Assembly (NCBI RefSeq): GCF_041886205.1
Contig: NZ_CP169029.1
Reading direction: 5' to 3' (one strand)
Source: Escherichia coli
Lineage (GTDB): Bacteria; Pseudomonadota; Gammaproteobacteria; Enterobacterales; Enterobacteriaceae
Length of the DNA: 64,000 nucleotides
Under the pieces are notes generated by a model that worked only from the letters and a program-made list of their open reading frames with translations, was not told the origin of the DNA and ran no database searches. Position numbers and translations under genes: made by a program. Of this stretch, positions 2,985 to 9,039 are shown in pieces (position 1 is the first letter of the stretch; the number at the start of each line of letters is the position of its first letter).

Positions 2985-4334
2985 ATGTCTGAAATTGTTG
3001 TCTCCAAATTTGGCGGTACCAGCGTAGCTGATTTTGACGCCATGAACCGCAGCGCTGATATTGTGCTTTCTGATGCCAACGTGCGTTTAGTAGTCCTCTC
3101 GGCTTCTGCTGGTATCACTAATCTGCTGGTCGCTTTAGCGGAAGGGCTGGAACCTGGCGAGCGATTCGAAAAACTCGACGCAATCCGCAATATCCAGTTT
3201 GCCATTCTGGAACGTCTGCGTTACCCGAACGTTATCCGTGAAGAGATTGAACGTCTGCTGGAGAACATTACTGTTCTGGCAGAAGCGGCGGCGCTGGCAA
3301 CGTCTCCGGCGCTGACAGATGAGCTGGTCAGCCACGGCGAGCTGATGTCGACCCTGCTGTTTGTCGAAATCCTGCGCGAACGCGATGTTCAGGCACAGTG
3401 GTTTGATGTACGTAAAGTGATGCGTACCAACGACCGATTTGGTCGTGCAGAGCCAGATGTAGCCGCGCTGGCGGAACTGGCCGCGCTGCAGCTGCTCCCA
3501 CGCCTCAATGAAGGCTTAGTGATCACCCAGGGATTTATCGGTAGCGAAAATAAAGGTCGTACAACGACGCTTGGCCGTGGAGGCAGCGATTATACGGCAG
3601 CCTTGCTGGCGGAGGCTTTACACGCATCTCGTGTTGATATCTGGACCGACGTCCCGGGCATCTACACCACCGATCCACGCGTGGTTTCCGCAGCAAAACG
3701 CATTGATGAAATCGCGTTTGCCGAAGCGGCAGAGATGGCAACTTTTGGTGCAAAAGTACTGCATCCGGCAACGTTGCTACCCGCAGTACGCAGCGATATC
3801 CCGGTCTTTGTCGGCTCCAGCAAAGACCCACGCGCAGGTGGTACGCTGGTGTGCAATAAAACTGAAAATCCGCCGCTGTTCCGCGCGCTGGCGCTTCGTC
3901 GCAATCAGACTCTGCTCACTTTGCACAGCCTGAATATGCTGCATTCTCGCGGCTTCCTCGCGGAAGTTTTCGGCATCCTCGCGCGGCATAACATTTCGGT
4001 AGACTTAATCACCACGTCAGAAGTGAGCGTGGCATTAACCCTTGATACCACCGGTTCAACCTCCACTGGCGATACGTTGCTGACGCAATCTCTGCTGATG
4101 GAGCTTTCCGCACTGTGCCGGGTGGAGGTGGAAGAAGGTCTGGCGCTGGTCGCGTTGATTGGCAATGACCTGTCAAAAGCCTGCGGCGTTGGCAAAGAGG
4201 TATTCGGCGTACTGGAACCGTTCAACATTCGCATGATTTGTTATGGCGCATCCAGCCATAACCTGTGCTTCCTGGTGCCCGGCGAAGATGCCGAGCAGGT
4301 GGTGCAGAAGCTGCATTTTAATTTGTTTGAGTAA
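2985..4334 (+). CDS. lysC: Lysine-sensitive aspartokinase III
   Basis: 449-aa ORF starting MSEIVVSKFGGTSVADFDAMNRSADIV; aspartokinase with C-terminal ACT domains. Confidence 0.98.
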   Translation: MSEIVVSKFGGTSVADFDAMNRSADIVLSDANVRLVVLSASAGITNLLVALAEGLEPGERFEKLDAIRNIQFAILERLRYPNVIREEIERLLENITVLAEAAALATSPALTDELVSHGELMSTLLFVEILRERDVQAQWFDVRKVMRTNDRFGRAEPDVAALAELAALQLLPRLNEGLVITQGFIGSENKGRTTTLGRGGSDYTAALLAEALHASRVDIWTDVPGIYTTDPRVVSAAKRIDEIAFAEAAEMATFGAKVLHPATLLPAVRSDIPVFVGSSKDPRAGGTLVCNKTENPPLFRALALRRNQTLLTLHSLNMLHSRGFLAEVFGILARHNISVDLITTSEVSVALTLDTTGSTSTGDTLLTQSLLMELSALCRVEVEEGLALVALIGNDLSKACGVGKEVFGVLEPFNIRMICYGASSHNLCFLVPGEDAEQVVQKLHFNLFE

Positions 4335-4346
4335 TATTTCCCTACT

Positions 4347-4377
4347 GGCGTATAACGCTCACCAATTGTTATACGCC
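4347..4377 (+). terminator. Hairpin 3' of lysC (possible terminator)
   Basis: 10-bp perfect stem ggcgtataac / gttatacgcc with an 11-nt loop, 13 nt after the lysC stop. No clear U-run. Confidence 0.4.
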
Positions 4378-4478
4378 ATCCTCACTGAAAATATAGATTA
4401 AATAATATCTGAAAAATAAAATCACTCCTGTAGAACAGTATTATAATCACCGAAAAATATTATTTAACAGGAGTGTTA

Positions 4479-5405
4479 ATGGCTACTTTAATGGAAAAAG
4501 ATGCACTTTTAAATGGCACCAGTCAGTGCATCGCGTTTTTATCAAATATCGTTGATAATTGCTCAGTTTCGTCACGTCAGGATTCAGGCGATGATCTCAC
4601 ACGATTAGTCAGCTATCGCGATTATCTTTACTCTACCCCCGCTGAACTTGTTGATTTTACACAGGGAAAGAGTCACCTTCAGCAGATTAGAACTCAATAT
4701 CAGCATGAATTCAACAATACTACGCATTCAGAAAATAAAGCATCTTTTGATTCTATTTGGCAGCGTCTGACAAATCATGAAGTCACACCGCAACAGCATC
4801 CCATTGGTTTTGTTTTAGGTGGGCAACCCGGAGCAGGTAAATCATCTCTGATTGAATTAGCCAAAAGAGAGACAAAAGATAATATAATGATTATTAACGG
4901 TGATGATTTTCGATTTCTACACCCTGATTTTAATTATATCTACCAAAATTATGGGGATGATTTTGTTACCCATACAGCGAAATTTTCCGGCGAAACGGTC
5001 GAACGTGCAATTGAGAGAGCGATAGTCAGTAAACTCAACATTGTTGTCGAAGGAACATTTCGTAATGCCGCTACGCCGTTACAAACATTAAAAAAACTCA
5101 AAGATGCAGGCTACCAAACAGAAGTCATGATAAAAACAACCTCAGCGGCATTAAGCTGGGAAAGCACCAATGAACGGTATAATAAGGACAAAGAGGCGGG
5201 AAATATTGCCCGAAAAGTGGATAAAAACCACCATGATATCGTCACCGGTTTGCTGGCAGAAAATGCCCGCAAGGTGTTTGCTTCGAACCTGTCAGATAAG
5301 TTTGCGGTGTATTCGCGTGAGAAGATGATATTTAGTTCACAAGCGGCAACGAATGACGATATTGCAACGCTTATACAGAATGAAATCAGCGGGAATACAC
5401 AATAA
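4479..5405 (+). CDS. ezeT: Zeta-toxin-family P-loop kinase with an N-terminal extension of about 100 aa (EzeT-like single-chain toxin-antitoxin candidate)
   Basis: ATG at 4479 lies 5 nt after AGGAG (4469-4473). Walker A GGQPGAGKSS is at 4818-4847. The downstream IINGDDFRFLHPDF motif resembles the zeta/PezT catalytic Asp region. There is no separate epsilon-like ORF upstream. The symbol is assigned from recalled domain architecture, not from an alignment. Confidence 0.7.
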   Translation: MATLMEKDALLNGTSQCIAFLSNIVDNCSVSSRQDSGDDLTRLVSYRDYLYSTPAELVDFTQGKSHLQQIRTQYQHEFNNTTHSENKASFDSIWQRLTNHEVTPQQHPIGFVLGGQPGAGKSSLIELAKRETKDNIMIINGDDFRFLHPDFNYIYQNYGDDFVTHTAKFSGETVERAIERAIVSKLNIVVEGTFRNAATPLQTLKKLKDAGYQTEVMIKTTSAALSWESTNERYNKDKEAGNIARKVDKNHHDIVTGLLAENARKVFASNLSDKFAVYSREKMIFSSQAATNDDIATLIQNEISGNTQ

Positions 5406-5431
5406 TAATAAGAGCTGATGGCGTGAAATAA

Positions 5432-5452
5432 CGCCGGGCATCACGCCCGGCG
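5432..5452. terminator. GC-rich hairpin between the convergent kinase and NTase genes (possible bidirectional terminator)
   Basis: cgccgggc-atcac-gcccggcg is an 8-bp stem. The NTase stop codon (5441-5443) sits in the loop. No U-runs on either side. Confidence 0.4.
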
Positions 5453-6241
5453 CATTACCGTCTGGTACATTAAGCTATCCAGTTCCTTAACGTCCCCTTC
5501 TCTGCTATCCGGTAACAGCGGTGGAATTTCCCCACGCGCCAGTTCCGCACGAATAAACGCATGTAACAATGGACGGCGCGGACCATATTCCGCTTCTCCT
5601 GCGCGCTGTTTACGTCCCAGTAATTCGTCTATTTCTGCACGTAACGGCGCATCAAGTTCACTTCCCGCCAGTAGCTCAGCAAAGCGCATTGGCGGCACGC
5701 CTTTTCCCGCTTCGACCCAGCGCACGGCCAGCAGCGGACGCAGCACGTAAAAGTATTTTTTCAGTCGAACTTCATCGCCCTGCAAATATCCGCGGAAGTT
5801 TTTCTGCGCCATCGAATAGTAATGCCAGCGCGCACGCAGCGGAGAAAACCACATTGGGACCATTGCCTTAAGCGCCGTTATCGTTTCTTCATCTTGTTGA
5901 TAGACCACCGGAGAATCCAGCCATTCTATCAGCGTCGGGTTCGCGCCTTTCAATAATCCCAGCGCCTTACGCCACTCCCAACCGGAAACATCTAACTCGT
6001 CGTCGATGGGCAGCTCGATAACATCGCGCGGCGGCTCCACCCGCAGATACCATTCCAGCGGGTGAACATACAAAAACCGTACATCGTAGTCGCTGTCGGG
6101 CGAGGCAAACCCCCAGCCGCGGCTCCCGGATTCACAGGCATACAGCACTTTCACGCCGTAGCGCCGTTCTATTTCTTTTAACTGCTGCGATACCCGTTCG
6201 CGCATCGCAGCACTGACTCCATTTAATGGCATGTTACTCAC
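5441..6241 (-). CDS. Pol-beta-superfamily nucleotidyltransferase, COG3541/PF10127 (RlaP)-like
   Basis: 266-aa ORF with the NTase signature GSRGWGFASPDSDYD (6083-6127; hG[GS]-x9-13-DxD). A helical region follows (WEWRKALGLLKGANPTLIEWLDSPVVY). The GTG at 6241 overlaps the upstream stop; an alternative ATG is at 6232. Confidence 0.75.
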   Translation of the reverse strand: MSNMPLNGVSAAMRERVSQQLKEIERRYGVKVLYACESGSRGWGFASPDSDYDVRFLYVHPLEWYLRVEPPRDVIELPIDDELDVSGWEWRKALGLLKGANPTLIEWLDSPVVYQQDEETITALKAMVPMWFSPLRARWHYYSMAQKNFRGYLQGDEVRLKKYFYVLRPLLAVRWVEAGKGVPPMRFAELLAGSELDAPLRAEIDELLGRKQRAGEAEYGPRRPLLHAFIRAELARGEIPPLLPDSREGDVKELDSLMYQTVMRRA

Positions 6242-7365
6242 CCTTTGATATTAACCAACCCATGCAGAACCTGATCCAGACCGCCAAATACAGAGATGTT
6301 ATCGATCCGCTCAGCCACTCTCTCCAGCGTTTCTAGCTCTTTTAAACGCAACGCTACCGGATTGTTCTCCATGACTTTGGCGGTGTTCAGTAACGAGCGC
6401 GTCGCTGCCGTTTCTTCACGTCGGCGAATCACATTCGCCTGCGCAGATTTCTCCGCCTCAACCAGCTGCGCAAGGATATTTTTCATATCGCCAGGCAGGA
6501 CGATATCTTTCACCCCTAATGAAGCAATCTCCATACCAAATGGCAACATGCGCGATTTCACCTGTTCGCTGACAACGTCATCAATGACCTGTTTATCTTC
6601 CAGCAGTTCATCCAGCGTACGAGTACCTACCGCTTCACGCAGGGCAAATTGCAATTCCCGATACAAATGATCAATCGGCTTCGTTAACTGACTAAATGCT
6701 AATAACACGTCGCTGTAGCGCCAGTTAGCCGCGAGGTTAATCCGCAGATTGACCTTATCTTTCGTTAAGATTTCTTGCCCGCTGACTTCCAGTACCTGCA
6801 AGCGGGTGTCAACCACTTCAGTTTCAACCAGATGGTTAATTTTCCAGTACGCGGTAAGCCCCGGCGGTAACAGCGCCTGCGTTTCACCATCGATTTTCAG
6901 CACGCCTACATGCCAGGCCGGAACCTGCACCGTCAGTATCGCATCGCGGCCTTTAACAACTCCTTTGCGCCGTGGCTGTAATACCGCATTCATCACCTCC
7001 GTTTGTACCGGGACTTGCTGCGTATTCATCCGCACCAGCGTCAAATCATCCTCTACACGCCAGTACAAACGACGCGTTGATGGCAGCAGGATCTCCAGCA
7101 AAATACCGTCCATATACAACGCCCCGGCTTCAGTCTCCGACAAGTCTGCCACCAGGCAATATTTCTCCACCCAATCAGGCTGAAAGCGGCGCAAATAGTC
7201 CGCCAGCACGTCGGGAACTTCGCTACCATCCAGCGTAATCAGCAACACTTCCGGGGTATTAAACCAGGGTAAAAAATGCTCGCCTGCATGTAGCACTTTG
7301 TAGTAATCGCCGTTTCTGGAGAGTAATGCCAGCTGATCTTTTCTTACGCTTATTTTTTTAATCAT
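6238..7365 (-). CDS. SPFH/Band-7 (stomatin/prohibitin/flotillin/HflKC) domain protein with no obvious membrane anchor
   Basis: 375-aa ORF. The C-terminal half carries classic SPFH motifs (QEILTKDKVNLRINL, LREAVGTRTLDELLEDK, FGMEIASLGVKDIVLP, AEKSAQANVIRRREETAA, NPVALRLKELETL). AAGGA lies about 8 nt before the ATG at 7365. No long hydrophobic segment is visible. Confidence 0.8.
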   Translation of the reverse strand: MIKKISVRKDQLALLSRNGDYYKVLHAGEHFLPWFNTPEVLLITLDGSEVPDVLADYLRRFQPDWVEKYCLVADLSETEAGALYMDGILLEILLPSTRRLYWRVEDDLTLVRMNTQQVPVQTEVMNAVLQPRRKGVVKGRDAILTVQVPAWHVGVLKIDGETQALLPPGLTAYWKINHLVETEVVDTRLQVLEVSGQEILTKDKVNLRINLAANWRYSDVLLAFSQLTKPIDHLYRELQFALREAVGTRTLDELLEDKQVIDDVVSEQVKSRMLPFGMEIASLGVKDIVLPGDMKNILAQLVEAEKSAQANVIRRREETAATRSLLNTAKVMENNPVALRLKELETLERVAERIDNISVFGGLDQVLHGLVNIKG

Positions 7366-7518
7366 TATCTATTCCTTGCTTAACAGCCGTCGCGGAAGCA
7401 GACACGAAGCGACAGGGGAATTCCCTTTTGCCTGTTACCCGGCGTCTTTATCGGCGACGTTATCGGGGATCGCTGACTGCGCAATCCCTCATTTTTTATT
7501 TAATAAGTTACAACCAGT

Positions 7519-7650
7519 ATTCATTTCAGGAATGAATGTGGGAATCGAACCCATAATTGGCGTCAAAGGCTGACGGAACACGCCCGGAAAACAGCCTGAC
7601 CGTTCCTGGTGTGCCGACGGGGTTTAACCCCCTTTGAAATTCAGTTTCAA
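7519..7650 (-). ncRNA. Candidate tRNA-like non-coding RNA upstream of the SPFH-NTase operon
   Basis: The minus strand has a canonical T-arm, aUGGG-UUCGAUU-CCCAc (7554-7538). Acceptor-like pairing joins 7645-7639 to 7537-7531 (6 of 7 bp). A cgtc/gacg-closed long arm spans 7619-7561, and there is a small GGGG/CCCC hairpin. The boundaries and the fold are hand-drawn, not computed. Confidence 0.4.
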
Positions 7651-7893
7651 CGCATAGGAGTTATTGCGAGAATCGTGCCAGAAGTAAAAAAAACACCTAA
7701 TCAAATGAAAAATAAAGATTTAATAAATTATTGTTTTTTATTGGGGGAAAACTTTTCGCTAAATTTGTATCTGTATTTATCATCAATTATCAAGAAAGAT
7801 AAATATTTCAGAAGAGAATAAAGGAATATTATCAGTTCTGCTTGCAAATGAATTCCCGTACACTGAATCCATCGGCTCACTGAGGGCACCATC

Positions 7894-8166
7894 ATGGCAC
7901 TCCCCCGTATTACCCAAAAAGAGATGACTGAACGCGAGCAGCGTGAACTTAAAACACTGCTGGATCGGGCGCGGATTGCGCATGGTCGCGTACTGACCAA
8001 CTCCGAAACCAACAGCATTAAGAAAGAGTACATCGATAAATTAATGGTTGAGCGTGAGGCTGAAGCAAAAAAAGCCCGCCAATTGAAGAAAAAGCAGGCT
8101 TATAAACCGGATCCTGAAGCGTCATTTAGCTGGTCAGCAAATACGTCGACGCGCGGCAGGCGCTGA
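7894..8166 (+). CDS. yjbD: DUF3811-family small basic protein YjbD
   Basis: 90-aa ORF starting MALPRITQKEMTEREQRELKTLLDRAR. Convergent with and abutting rluF, as in K-12. Confidence 0.9.
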   Translation: MALPRITQKEMTEREQRELKTLLDRARIAHGRVLTNSETNSIKKEYIDKLMVEREAEAKKARQLKKKQAYKPDPEASFSWSANTSTRGRR

Positions 8167-9039
8167 TTAGCGCCCCTTCTTTTTTCGCCCCGGCGAGGTA
8201 AAACGCTTACCGTTGGACGCCGGGCGACCGCCTTTTTCCGCCGTTTTTTCCATCTTAACGACTGGGCGTTTGATGCCCGCCGTTTTCGGTTTGGCCTTCG
8301 CTTTAGGTTTTGCCTCGGAAGAGGAATTTTCGATGAGTTTAAAGAGGTCGATTAACTCATCGTCAGTTAAATCGCGCCACTCACCCAGCGGAATGCCGCT
8401 TAAACTGACGTTCATAATGCGCGTACGTTCCAGCTTTTTCACTTCGTAACCAAAGTGCTCGCACATGCGACGGATCTGACGGTTCAGCCCCTGCACCAGG
8501 GTAATGCGGAAGACAAACGGCGCTTCTTTTTTGACTTTGCACTTTTTCGTCACCGTCCCGAGGATCGGCACTCCCGCCCCCATACCACGAATAAATTCAT
8601 CGGTAATCGGTTTATCGACCGTCACCAGATACTCTTTCTCATGATCGTTACCCGCACGGAGGATCTTATTCACCAGATCGCCGTGATTGGTGAGGAAAAT
8701 CAGCCCCTGGGAGTCTTTATCCAGGCGGCCAATCGGGAACACGCGTTTGCTGTGGTTAACGAAATCGACAATGTTATCGCGCTCGCCATCTTCGGTGGTG
8801 CTGACAATACCGACGGGCTTGTTCAGGGCGATAAGTACCAAATCTTCGGCTTCCCGAGGCTCAATCAACTGACCGTTTACTTTCACAACGTCGCCGGGTT
8901 TCACCTGATCGCCAATGGTGGCTCGCTTGCCATTAAGGAACACATTGCCTTGCTCGATATAGCGATCCGCTTCGCGGCGTGAGCAAATTCCGCTTTCGCT
9001 GATGTATTTATTTAAACGGACTGATGAGTCGGGCAGCAT
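8167..9039 (-). CDS. rluF: 23S rRNA pseudouridine(2604) synthase
   Basis: 290-aa ORF with an S4 domain plus the RsuA/RluF-type motif ([15 protein letters not shown]) and a Lys-rich C-terminal tail. Confidence 0.95.

Follow-up and report, generated by a model that had tools for sequence, protein, structure and literature searches.

An apparently ancestral SPFH-RlaP gene pair with a structured leader RNA, next to ezeT, in the lysC-yjbD interval of Escherichia coli

Genes and features of the interval

In Escherichia coli K-12, lysC and yjbD are separated by 252 bp; in the E. coli DNA considered here (64,000 nucleotides [nt] of contig NZ_CP169029.1, RefSeq assembly GCF_041886205.1; "the window" below), the corresponding spacer measures 3,559 bp, from the end of lysC at 4334 to the start of yjbD at 7894. 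The window runs in reverse relative to the K-12 map, and its gene order is pgi (minus strand), a lysine riboswitch upstream of lysC (2697-2893; 99.5 bits against Rfam), lysC (2985-4334), the interval, yjbD (7894-8166), rluF, pepE, yjbB, and metH. The interval holds three genes, i.e., a zeta-toxin family kinase on the plus strand and, on the minus strand, an RlaP nucleotidyltransferase and an SPFH/Band-7 protein; beyond the SPFH gene, a 528-bp non-coding stretch (7366-7893) reaches yjbD. A preliminary description made from the sequence alone had recognized three extra genes and a structured non-coding region in a spacer that is short in K-12, and the open reading frames (ORFs), their Pfam matches, and nine covarying RNA helices bear this out. 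It had also taken the whole for a mosaic island inserted into a K-12-like empty site. We arrive at a different history: the interval is probably two unrelated modules lying side by side, ezeT and an orphan remnant of an RNA-repair operon, both of known kinds and neither of which arrived as a mobile island. The features on which this view is based are as follows.

4347-4377, plus strand: hairpin GGCGTATAAC...GTTATACGCC, directly after the lysC stop codon in the AT-rich left edge; read from the sequence
4479-5405, plus strand: ezeT, a single-polypeptide type II toxin-antitoxin of 308 amino acids (aa); PF06414, 1.5e-40
5432-5452, no strand assigned: GC-rich hairpin GCCGGGC/GCCCGGC where ezeT and rlaP converge, in overlap with the rlaP stop codon; read from the sequence
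5441-6232, minus strand: rlaP, RNA-ligase-associated Pol-beta nucleotidyltransferase of 263 aa (RefSeq start); PF10127, 3.4e-95
6238-7365, minus strand: SPFH/Band-7 (slipin-type) protein of 375 aa; PF01145, 8.9e-27
7366-7654, minus strand: structured 5' leader or non-coding RNA of about 290 nt upstream of the SPFH gene, with nine covarying helices; 5' end placed from the promoter
7432-7457, no strand assigned: part of the leader that appears to survive as a relic in K-12 (spacer nt 81-106; 23 of 26 positions identical, collinear, same orientation)
7538-7554, minus strand: mimic of a tRNA T-arm, AUGGG-UUCGAUU-CCCAC, with loop GGUUCGAUUCC; the core GGUUCGAYUCC is conserved and the stem covaries
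7665-7680, minus strand: putative sigma-54 (-24/-12) promoter TGGCACGATTCTCGCA, GG-N10-GC geometry
7764-7806, no strand assigned: AT-rich boxes, including the inverted repeat TTATC-N6-GATAA, overlapping the yjbD upstream region and retained in K-12

Age of the SPFH-RlaP pair and the K-12 spacer

In K. oxytoca (locus L010) and in a second Klebsiella species (L011), the order yjbD, transporter, rtcR, divergent SPFH-RlaP, lysC occupies the same slot as the interval of the window; the transporter belongs to the SBF family by Pfam in K. oxytoca and has a counterpart of similar size in the second species. Between E. coli and K. oxytoca, the synonymous divergence (dS) of spfh (1.74) and rlaP (1.51) is like that of the flanking genes lysC (1.56), yjbD (1.47), and rluF (2.01). 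Because the Klebsiella synteny is orthologous and dS matches that of the flanking core genes, we regard the SPFH-RlaP pair as old at this locus and not newly inserted. The preliminary description had proposed at least two acquisition layers; two layers of different origin are indeed present, but one of them, the SPFH-RlaP layer, appears to be ancestral rather than acquired. Both genes are also under strong purifying selection, with ratios of nonsynonymous to synonymous divergence (dN/dS) of 0.05 to 0.09, including comparisons between E. coli haplotypes (0.05 to 0.08 for rlaP). Between E. coli haplotypes, dS of spfh and rlaP reaches 0.12 to 0.39, 3 to 10 times the value for adjoining lysC (0.038), so that the allelic lineages of these accessory genes go back much further than those of the flanking core gene.

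What, then, is the short spacer of K-12? Its yjbD-proximal ~135 nt correspond to ~7760-7893 of the window and include the TTATC-N6-GATAA boxes, which align, though weakly, with sequence beside the rtcR start codon in Klebsiella. Farther in lies the 26-nt stretch that matches the leader, with an alignment score of 20 versus a shuffle mean of 11.8 (standard deviation, 1.4), a score that none of 2,000 shuffles reached. Given that the spacer holds both this collinear leader relic and the AT-rich boxes, K-12 is best read as a deletion derivative and its spacer as the scar of an occupied locus, so the proposal of an island in a K-12-like empty site does not hold. The segments missing from K-12 would be ~7458-7755, with the promoter and the 5' part of the leader, and the stretch from the end of lysC through ~7431. 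For the left 74 nt of the K-12 spacer, the sole likeness noted is a weak, positional one to the lysC terminator of Klebsiella, and the lysC-proximal hairpin of K-12 is closer, again weakly, to that terminator than to the AT-rich left edge of the window. This resemblance suggests that the deletion of the SPFH-RlaP module occurred in a haplotype not yet holding ezeT. The AT-rich left edge (4335-4478) has no match to the K-12 spacer in the alignment, and the hairpin at 4347-4377 is likely the lysC terminator of the ezeT-bearing haplotype. The most economical history would start from a Klebsiella-like ancestor, followed by loss of rtcR and the transporter in Escherichia; one lineage would then have gained ezeT by insertion next to lysC, and another, now predominant, would have deleted the operon.

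The SPFH and RlaP proteins and their relatives

The first ~180 residues of the SPFH protein are made up of three repeats of the first beta-hairpins of the SPFH domain, with the motif ExGLLxxDGxxxxxLxPGxHxxW, and residues ~183-373 comprise a stomatin-like SPFH core and a long coiled-coil helix. An AlphaFold model has a mean confidence (predicted local distance difference test) of 85.7 over the full length and 94.3 for residues 1-182; despite this confident model, the N-terminal half has no close structural neighbor. Some homologues carry an additional N-terminal extension of 130 to 280 residues. The window protein has no membrane anchor (the maximal 19-residue Kyte-Doolittle hydropathy is 1.13), and the window contains no NfeD-like ORF as its partner. 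Since there is neither a hydrophobic segment nor an NfeD partner, we predict that this protein is soluble, unlike the classical membrane slipins. It shares the SPFH fold with the membrane stomatin/slipin-NfeD pairs (QmcA-YbbJ, HflK/C) but differs from them in lacking anchor and NfeD, in its unique N-terminal triple repeat, and in having an RNA nucleotidyltransferase as its partner.

The RlaP assignment is based on a full-length match to PF10127 (318.9 bits; residues 13-259 of the 266-aa ORF against positions 1-248 of the 249-position profile). No RNA ligase ORF lies in 4335-7893, so the context from which the family takes its name, a ligase neighbor, is missing here, and the assignment rests on the protein itself; the PDB holds no sequence relative of it. 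RlaP family members of Pseudomonas add 1 or 2 nucleoside monophosphates to the 3'-OH ends of RNA, favoring damaged RNAs, and the P. aeruginosa protein is encoded between rtcB and rtcA (PMC12776372). The SPFH protein PaFlo8 of P. aeruginosa is "embedded within the rtc locus" (PMC13086221). A link among RtcB, a Band-7 protein, and a "band-7-associated tRNA" was drawn by Burroughs and Aravind in 2016, in the words quoted from them in bioRxiv 10.1101/312249, and translation stress in Anabaena induces a slipin, rtcB, and a tRNA operon together (PMC10272220).

A single-sequence search of a 90% cluster database with the SPFH protein returned near-identical E. coli entries only and was replaced by the use of 50% representatives and an alignment-based scan. 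In that scan, a profile of diverse full-length SPFH homologues (alignment A1) was run over species-representative genomes and gave 594 related loci, of which 80 were kept. Full-length SPFH identity over the 80 ranges from 42 to 82% and is 54 to 58% to the Pseudomonas loci. In 21 of the 80, RlaP is encoded downstream of SPFH and on its strand. In all six RlaP-bearing loci of Enterobacterales (two Klebsiella, Superficieibacter, two Mangrovibacter, and Lonsdalea), it directly adjoins SPFH; in Pseudomonas, Burkholderiales, and Rhodocyclales, it follows 1.3 to 4 kb downstream, beyond RtcB. The genes between or flanking the pair in such loci encode, by Pfam, RtcB, a treble-clef zinc-finger protein, a HEAT-repeat protein, and RtcA. 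The divergent 526-aa gene of K. oxytoca is RtcR by its Pfam match (PF06956, 5.8e-81, plus a sigma-54 interaction domain), and Pfam likewise confirmed RtcB in two loci and RtcA in one (the RtcB/RtcA loci being L045 and L089); most other RlaP-bearing loci have a divergent ORF of rtcR size upstream of SPFH. Full-length SPFH relatives also occur in Klebsiella, Superficieibacter, Mangrovibacter, Lonsdalea, Providencia, and Gilliamella. According to a recent survey, Enterobacterales have no homologues of PaFlo8 (PMC13086221); the relatives in E. coli and other Enterobacterales appear to contradict this statement, our comparison having been made with the Pseudomonas rtc-locus proteins and not with PaFlo8 itself.

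In total, these observations identify SPFH-rlaP as a probable orphan remnant of an RtcR/sigma-54 RNA-repair operon. The interval contains no rtcR, rtcB, or rtcA, and there is no ORF between 7366 and yjbD; in E. coli, rtcR sits at the rtcBA locus, and the rtcBA operon of K-12, with its short leader, includes no SPFH or RlaP gene. Compared with the complete arrangements (rtcR/rtcB/rtcA in E. coli; rtcR divergent from SPFH(PaFlo8)-rtcB-rlaP-rtcA in Pseudomonas), the window locus has a sigma-54 promoter of the same form and orthologous SPFH and RlaP, but it lacks rtcR, rtcB, and rtcA in cis and is left with two accessory genes and a leader, whereas the syntenic Klebsiella locus keeps the divergent rtcR. 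This ligase-less SPFH-RlaP variant of Enterobacterales is new in detail. In K. oxytoca (L010, 8059-8994), a 311-aa ORF without a Pfam match lies between rlaP and lysC, on the strand opposite to that of ezeT and unrelated to EzeT; small cargo may enter the rlaP-lysC junction repeatedly.

The sigma-54 promoter and the leader RNA

The putative promoter at 7665-7680 can be compared with that of K-12 rtcBA, which reads TGGCACGACGGTTGCA. Leaders with an SPFH gene downstream were collected by a pattern scan of metagenome contigs and from the genome loci (78 in total; 68 promoter-positive, with the 10 that had no match to the regular expression excluded), and 22 non-redundant leaders, with SPFH identities of 62 to 100%, were aligned (alignment A2). 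The motif TGGCACG-N4-YKGCA is present in all 22 with invariant columns; the promoter was a selection criterion, so this is partly by construction. The AT-rich boxes at 7764-7806 may be an upstream site for RtcR or IHF. When the region upstream of K-12 rtcB was compared with the window locus for a common RtcR operator, both proved GATA-rich, with no convincing shared motif.

The consensus fold of the leader came from RNAalifold and was edited: pairs with non-transcribed promoter bases (columns 1-4 and 13-15) were removed and one hairpin was added by eye, which leaves 55 pairs in nine helices. In A2, 92.3% of cells at these positions are paired, versus 44 to 50% when the partners are slid by 1 to 3 columns; 37 pairs show compensatory double changes (9 to 16 when slid), and the covariation score is 0.364 (0.07 to 0.11 when slid). 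None of 500 shuffles reached the observed pair statistics. This nine-helix leader RNA stands outside Rfam and is new in detail. Its most recognizable part is the T-arm mimic, in whose stem the A2 columns 158-172 hold CG in nine sequences, UA in seven, and UG in three; the T-arm core belonged to the search pattern for most leaders, so its conservation is partly by construction. We also tried a full cloverleaf with an acceptor stem (GCCGG with CUGG) and dropped it, there being no covariation in its favor. RNAalifold further pairs the UCC of the leader's GUUCCG motif (~7575-7578) with the GGA of the SPFH Shine-Dalgarno sequence (7373-7376; minus strand); 20 to 21 of the 22 sequences are paired (columns 111-113 with 380-382), both sides are invariant, and covariation is therefore uninformative. 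In this predicted fold, the pairing could sequester the SPFH ribosome-binding site.

How does this RNA relate to known ones? Upstream of most non-enterobacterial SPFH homologues, at 250 to 450 nt, ARAGORN calls tRNA-like genes, one or two per locus, whose anticodon loops are often aberrant; these are predicted band-7-associated tRNAs (b7a-tRNAs), and one of them scores 52 bits as a tRNA in Rfam. In Azonexus (Betaproteobacteria), a 5' module consisting of a GGGG/CCCC hairpin, GCCGG, a long hairpin, and a T-arm precedes a canonical tRNA-like gene. The leaders of Enterobacterales keep the 5' module and 3' helices, and the canonical tRNA-like unit is absent. Thus, the window leader appears to be related to the b7a-tRNA and YrlA class, yet it fails as a member of either the tRNA or the YrlA family. 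In A. caeni (L021, 5610-5660), the YrlA model (RF02553) weakly spans the leader T-arm and the D-arm of the b7a-tRNA, at 20.6 bits versus a gathering threshold of 69, which hints that b7a-type leaders and YrlA share an architecture of T-arm followed by D-arm.

The resemblance to the Band-7/b7a-tRNA module of Burroughs and Aravind is that an SPFH gene follows a same-strand RNA with tRNA features in an RNA-repair context and that the SPFH proteins are orthologous to those of rtc/RtcB operons, with RtcR, RtcB, RlaP, and RtcA as neighbors in the loci checked. The difference is that the enterobacterial element retains only the T-arm, inside a nine-helix leader, and is not callable as a tRNA. The Ro60 (Rsr)-YrlA/YrlB system, as in the Salmonella rsr-yrlBA-rtcBA operon (RF02553), offers a functional analogy, i.e., an RtcR/sigma-54 operon that opens with a scaffold protein and a T-arm RNA; in the window, however, the scaffold would be SPFH rather than a TROVE/vWA protein, and YrlA has no match there.

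Many non-enterobacterial SPFH/rtc loci have long same-strand arrays of ordinary-looking tRNAs upstream, and sometimes downstream (28 tRNAs in L071, 25 in L089, and 16 in L052). Further arrays occur at L055, L031, L067, L056, L073, L016, and L037 (SPFH starts at ~6001 in most and elsewhere in L031 and L067), and the SPFH loci of Nostoc have tandem tRNA-Met pairs. In Anabaena, TrcR represses the slipin gene, rtcB, and an operon of 26 tRNAs together, and translation stress induces them (PMC10272220). A survey of how generally tRNA arrays accompany SPFH/Rtc modules seems worthwhile.

EzeT and the composition of the interval

The kinase gene next to lysC is, to all appearances, an allele of ezeT already described at this position. 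The basis for this identification is that the gene for WP_000212693.1, which lies at the same locus in O111:H8 strain 9662, has 98.1% DNA and 97% protein identity to it and that a 2023 review names that protein EzeT, adjoining lysC in B1 strains (PMC10532202). EzeT was described by Rocker and Meinhart (2015, Mol Microbiol 97:589; reviewed in PMC4826407 and PMC10532202) and is reported to be a UDP-N-acetylglucosamine (UDP-GlcNAc) kinase with a lytic phenotype, the removal of whose N-terminal domain leads to toxicity (PMC10532202, PMC4826407). The true start in the window is ATG 4479, with AGGAG at 4469-4473, and not GTG 4473; the protein thus begins MATLMEKD, in agreement with RefSeq models and all homologues. 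From the alignments, residues ~1-82 would be the cis-acting antitoxin domain and residues ~85-308 a zeta/PezT-type UDP-GlcNAc kinase; the latter align with PezT (2p5t, 5e-33) and zeta, and the Walker A motif GGQPGAGKS and INGDDFR (GDDFR motif) are intact. The window gene therefore shares with EzeT its place beside lysC and its fusion of an N-terminal cis-antitoxin to a C-terminal kinase, with no material difference.

The new context is a split version. On an enterobacterial metagenome contig (L008), a separate 82-aa ORF with 50% identity to EzeT residues 3-82 overlaps the start of a 232-aa zeta kinase; this fits split and fused forms of one toxin-antitoxin pair, the alternative being a frameshift that splits a fused gene. 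The split relative (5763-6699) adjoins cysJIH and a Cas3 gene. In Pseudocitrobacter (L005, 7288-9668), a fused 310-aa relative lies at an unrelated locus, flanked by HEAT-repeat and HD-domain proteins. Homologues of EzeT are few, and those with a named source outside Escherichia and Pseudocitrobacter come from Helicobacter, Treponema, and Fusobacterium. These few homologues in distant taxa, together with an AT-rich composition, suggest that ezeT is foreign, by horizontal acquisition. None of the 80 SPFH loci from other species has an EzeT homologue, and ezeT is therefore an independent, already characterized gene.

The compositional contrast drawn in the preliminary description is confirmed by the computed values. 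The GC content of ezeT is 40.3% (35.3% at third codon positions, GC3), and the left (4335-4478) and right (7656-7893) edges have 30.6 and 31.5% GC, versus a window mean of 51.9%; rlaP (GC 54.8%, GC3 56.4%) and spfh (GC 50.2%, GC3 56.1%) are similar to the core genes lysC and rluF (GC3 57 and 61%). Also as described, there are no mobility genes and no tRNA gene: the ORFs of 4335-7893 include no integrase, transposase, or insertion sequence (IS) end, and ARAGORN found no tRNA gene in 4000-8300. No boundary repeats were seen in the sequence and alignments read, no repeat finder having been run. Searches of Rfam over the interval and over the leader alone yielded the lysine riboswitch upstream of lysC as the sole find, with no tRNA, YrlA, or Y RNA. 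The hairpin at 5432-5452 is a probable bidirectional terminator; on its minus strand, it has a weak terminator-like Rfam match (SorX, 19.6 bits, E 0.42). A scan for sigma-70 promoters and terminators returned fewer sites than in shuffled sequence.

Distribution among E. coli genomes

In 5,426 complete E. coli genomes, SPFH and RlaP occur together in 1,631 (30%) and the ezeT kinase gene in 1,433 (26%), always chromosomal and in single copy, so the interval is accessory within the species, as had been supposed. All three genes are found together in 1,424 genomes, and about 200 have SPFH-RlaP with no ezeT detectable by megablast. The K-12-type spacer of 252 bp is carried by 3,770 genomes (69.5%), which lack all three genes; the three genes are thus far from being present in essentially all E. 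coli including K-12, the state that would have made the segment core. Of the 5,426 genomes, 5,401 (99.5%) have either the occupied or the scar haplotype, and 1,623 of the 1,631 carriers retain at least 80% of the two-gene segment.

Secondary variants include a prophage between lysC and rlaP, with no ezeT (MS6198 and TCM3e1; L002 and L091), a Mu-like prophage remnant (GN25; L003), a diverged and frameshifted ezeT (O145:H28), and an internal deletion that takes rlaP and half of spfh (XJ6-3). In strain PT62 (L004, 1968-2665), an IS1 in the 5' end of ezeT severs the start of the antitoxin domain, and the locus is otherwise 100% identical to the window. PT62, a pigeon isolate with an IS1-rich, rearranged chromosome, is the sole genome with such identity, and the window is without the IS1.

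The rtcB-rtcR locus is present in 4,838 of the 5,426 genomes (89%), and by arithmetic at least 1,043 genomes have both loci. In the remaining ~11%, a deletion at the malT-glpR locus has removed rtcB and most of rtcR; the Rtc system itself is a presence/absence polymorphism in E. coli.

A proposed mechanism and its alternatives

In EzeT, a known self-inhibited toxin, the N-terminal domain would restrain its own zeta-type UDP-GlcNAc kinase. Separately, based on these observations, we propose that a transcript starting from the sigma-54 promoter (7680-7665) would carry a structured RNA of ~290 nt with a T-arm mimic, then SPFH, then RlaP. The RNA would be the enterobacterial counterpart of the band-7-associated tRNA and of YrlA-type RNAs. 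The Rtc system responds to damaged tRNA (cited in PMC10272220), and RtcR from the rtcBA locus, responding to such damage, could drive the orphan promoter in trans; we regard this RtcR as the likely driver because E. coli has lost the cis rtcR that Klebsiella keeps at the locus. A cage-forming SPFH oligomer might then serve as a scaffold for the tRNA-like leader RNA, by analogy with Ro and Y RNA, and RlaP would repair or extend damaged RNA 3' ends by 1 or 2 nucleotides for ligation in trans by RtcB (with RtcA). We speculate that the leader is, or yields, a stable tRNA-mimic RNA in a soluble SPFH cage, a ribonucleoprotein (RNP) like Ro-Y RNA or vaults, which with RlaP would form an RtcR-controlled satellite for the healing of RNA ends; this is a tentative proposal, which we hold to be possible rather than probable. 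With similar reserve, we suggest that such a satellite might operate in ~30% of E. coli and draw on RtcB and RtcA, whose genes lie 670 kb away.

Several observations weigh against the proposed mechanism. The interval contains no RNA ligase, cyclase, or rtcR, and any role in repair depends on trans factors that are unlinked here. The N-terminal domain of SPFH has no recognizable RNA-binding fold, and the leader matches no Rfam family, with no Rfam tRNA hit at E<=10, no YrlA hit in the window, and no ARAGORN call. In the four aligned E. coli leaders, the -12 element is TCGCA versus TGGCA in other taxa, one base off. The alignment score of the intergenic boxes between K-12 and K. oxytoca was reached by 21 of 2,000 shuffles and that between the window and K. 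oxytoca by 69 of 2,000. About 70% of E. coli have lost the module, which is hence dispensable, and deletion of PaFlo8 in P. aeruginosa gave no phenotype in standard assays (PMC13086221).

The last two points also serve the main rival for the SPFH-RlaP module, namely, that it is a functionless remnant heading for loss, in which SPFH and RlaP persist by inertia after rtcR, and perhaps a ligase, disappeared. Intermediates of decay can be pointed to (the internal deletion of XJ6-3 and the IS and prophage insertions), and there is no cis regulator or ligase. Can inertia account for what has been kept, however? At dS of up to 0.39 between E. coli haplotypes, dN/dS is still 0.05 to 0.09; nearly all carriers keep most of the two-gene segment; and five lineages with the ligase-less SPFH-RlaP form (E. 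coli, Klebsiella, Superficieibacter, Mangrovibacter, and Lonsdalea) have all kept the promoter and the nine helices, with compensatory changes. We therefore think decay unlikely.

Could the interval instead be a small defense or conflict islet, gained horizontally in at least two steps into a short lysC-yjbD spacer that acts as a hotspot with alternative cargos elsewhere? This was the expectation of the preliminary description, and parts of it fit: the segment is present in some genomes only (30%), the AT-rich ezeT looks foreign, conflict systems typically include toxin genes and genes for RNA-end modification, and prophages and IS elements have occasionally entered (L002, L003, L004, L091). 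The genes are, as it held, those of toxin and RNA-damage biology, namely EzeT and the RlaP and SPFH of Rtc-type operons. Against it, the K-12 spacer contains the leader relic and the upstream boxes; the Klebsiella synteny is orthologous, with dS equal to that of the flanking core genes and with core-like GC3 of SPFH and RlaP; and no attachment-site repeats or mobility genes were seen. The idea of a hotspot fails on the two haplotypes that cover nearly all genomes, the rest being prophage or IS insertions, a frameshift, or a deletion. Nor did the search for defense systems that had been advised give support: PADLOC-DB v2, run on the interval, has no family for SPFH or RlaP, and the kinase drew only 15.8 bits (E 0.0026), not above noise. 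For SPFH-RlaP the islet is largely refuted, and overall we give it a small chance, below that of decay.

Smaller still, to the point of being highly improbable, is the chance that the three genes form one system in which, for example, the zeta-type kinase is the missing RNA 3'-kinase that makes RlaP products ligatable by RtcB. The genes adjoin one another and co-occur in 1,424 genomes, and the RlaP study remarks that an RNA 3'-kinase "is yet to be discovered" (PMC12776372). EzeT, however, has been reported to phosphorylate UDP-GlcNAc and to have a lytic phenotype (PMC10532202, PMC4826407); its gene is convergent to rlaP and of different composition; its homologues are found in none of the 80 SPFH loci of other species and, elsewhere, in unrelated contexts; and the ~200 genomes with SPFH-RlaP and no detectable ezeT include the prophage-disrupted L002 and L091, with ezeT frameshifted in O145:H28.

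Significance

EzeT, RlaP, and the Band-7/tRNA-like RNA module of Rtc operons are all of kinds already known. What is new in detail is the recognition of a deletion scar at lysC-yjbD: K-12 appears to represent the derived state, and the apparent island the ancestral locus. For the mining of defense islands, this serves as a warning that toxin-type genes at a site of variable occupancy between core genes are not, on that ground alone, a mobile defense islet.

A ligase-less SPFH-RlaP pair behind a candidate sigma-54 promoter and a strongly covarying leader RNA is present in about 30% of complete genomes of E. coli and also in several other Enterobacterales. A role for a Band-7 protein and a tRNA-like RNA in bacterial RNA repair has so far been predicted by computation only. 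The two-gene version of E. coli, with RtcR, RtcB, and RtcA in trans and natural deletion strains as controls, makes this prediction directly testable. If the locus does encode an RNP satellite, the 2016 prediction of a Band-7 protein working with a tRNA-like RNA in RNA repair would have its first tractable system in natural isolates of E. coli.

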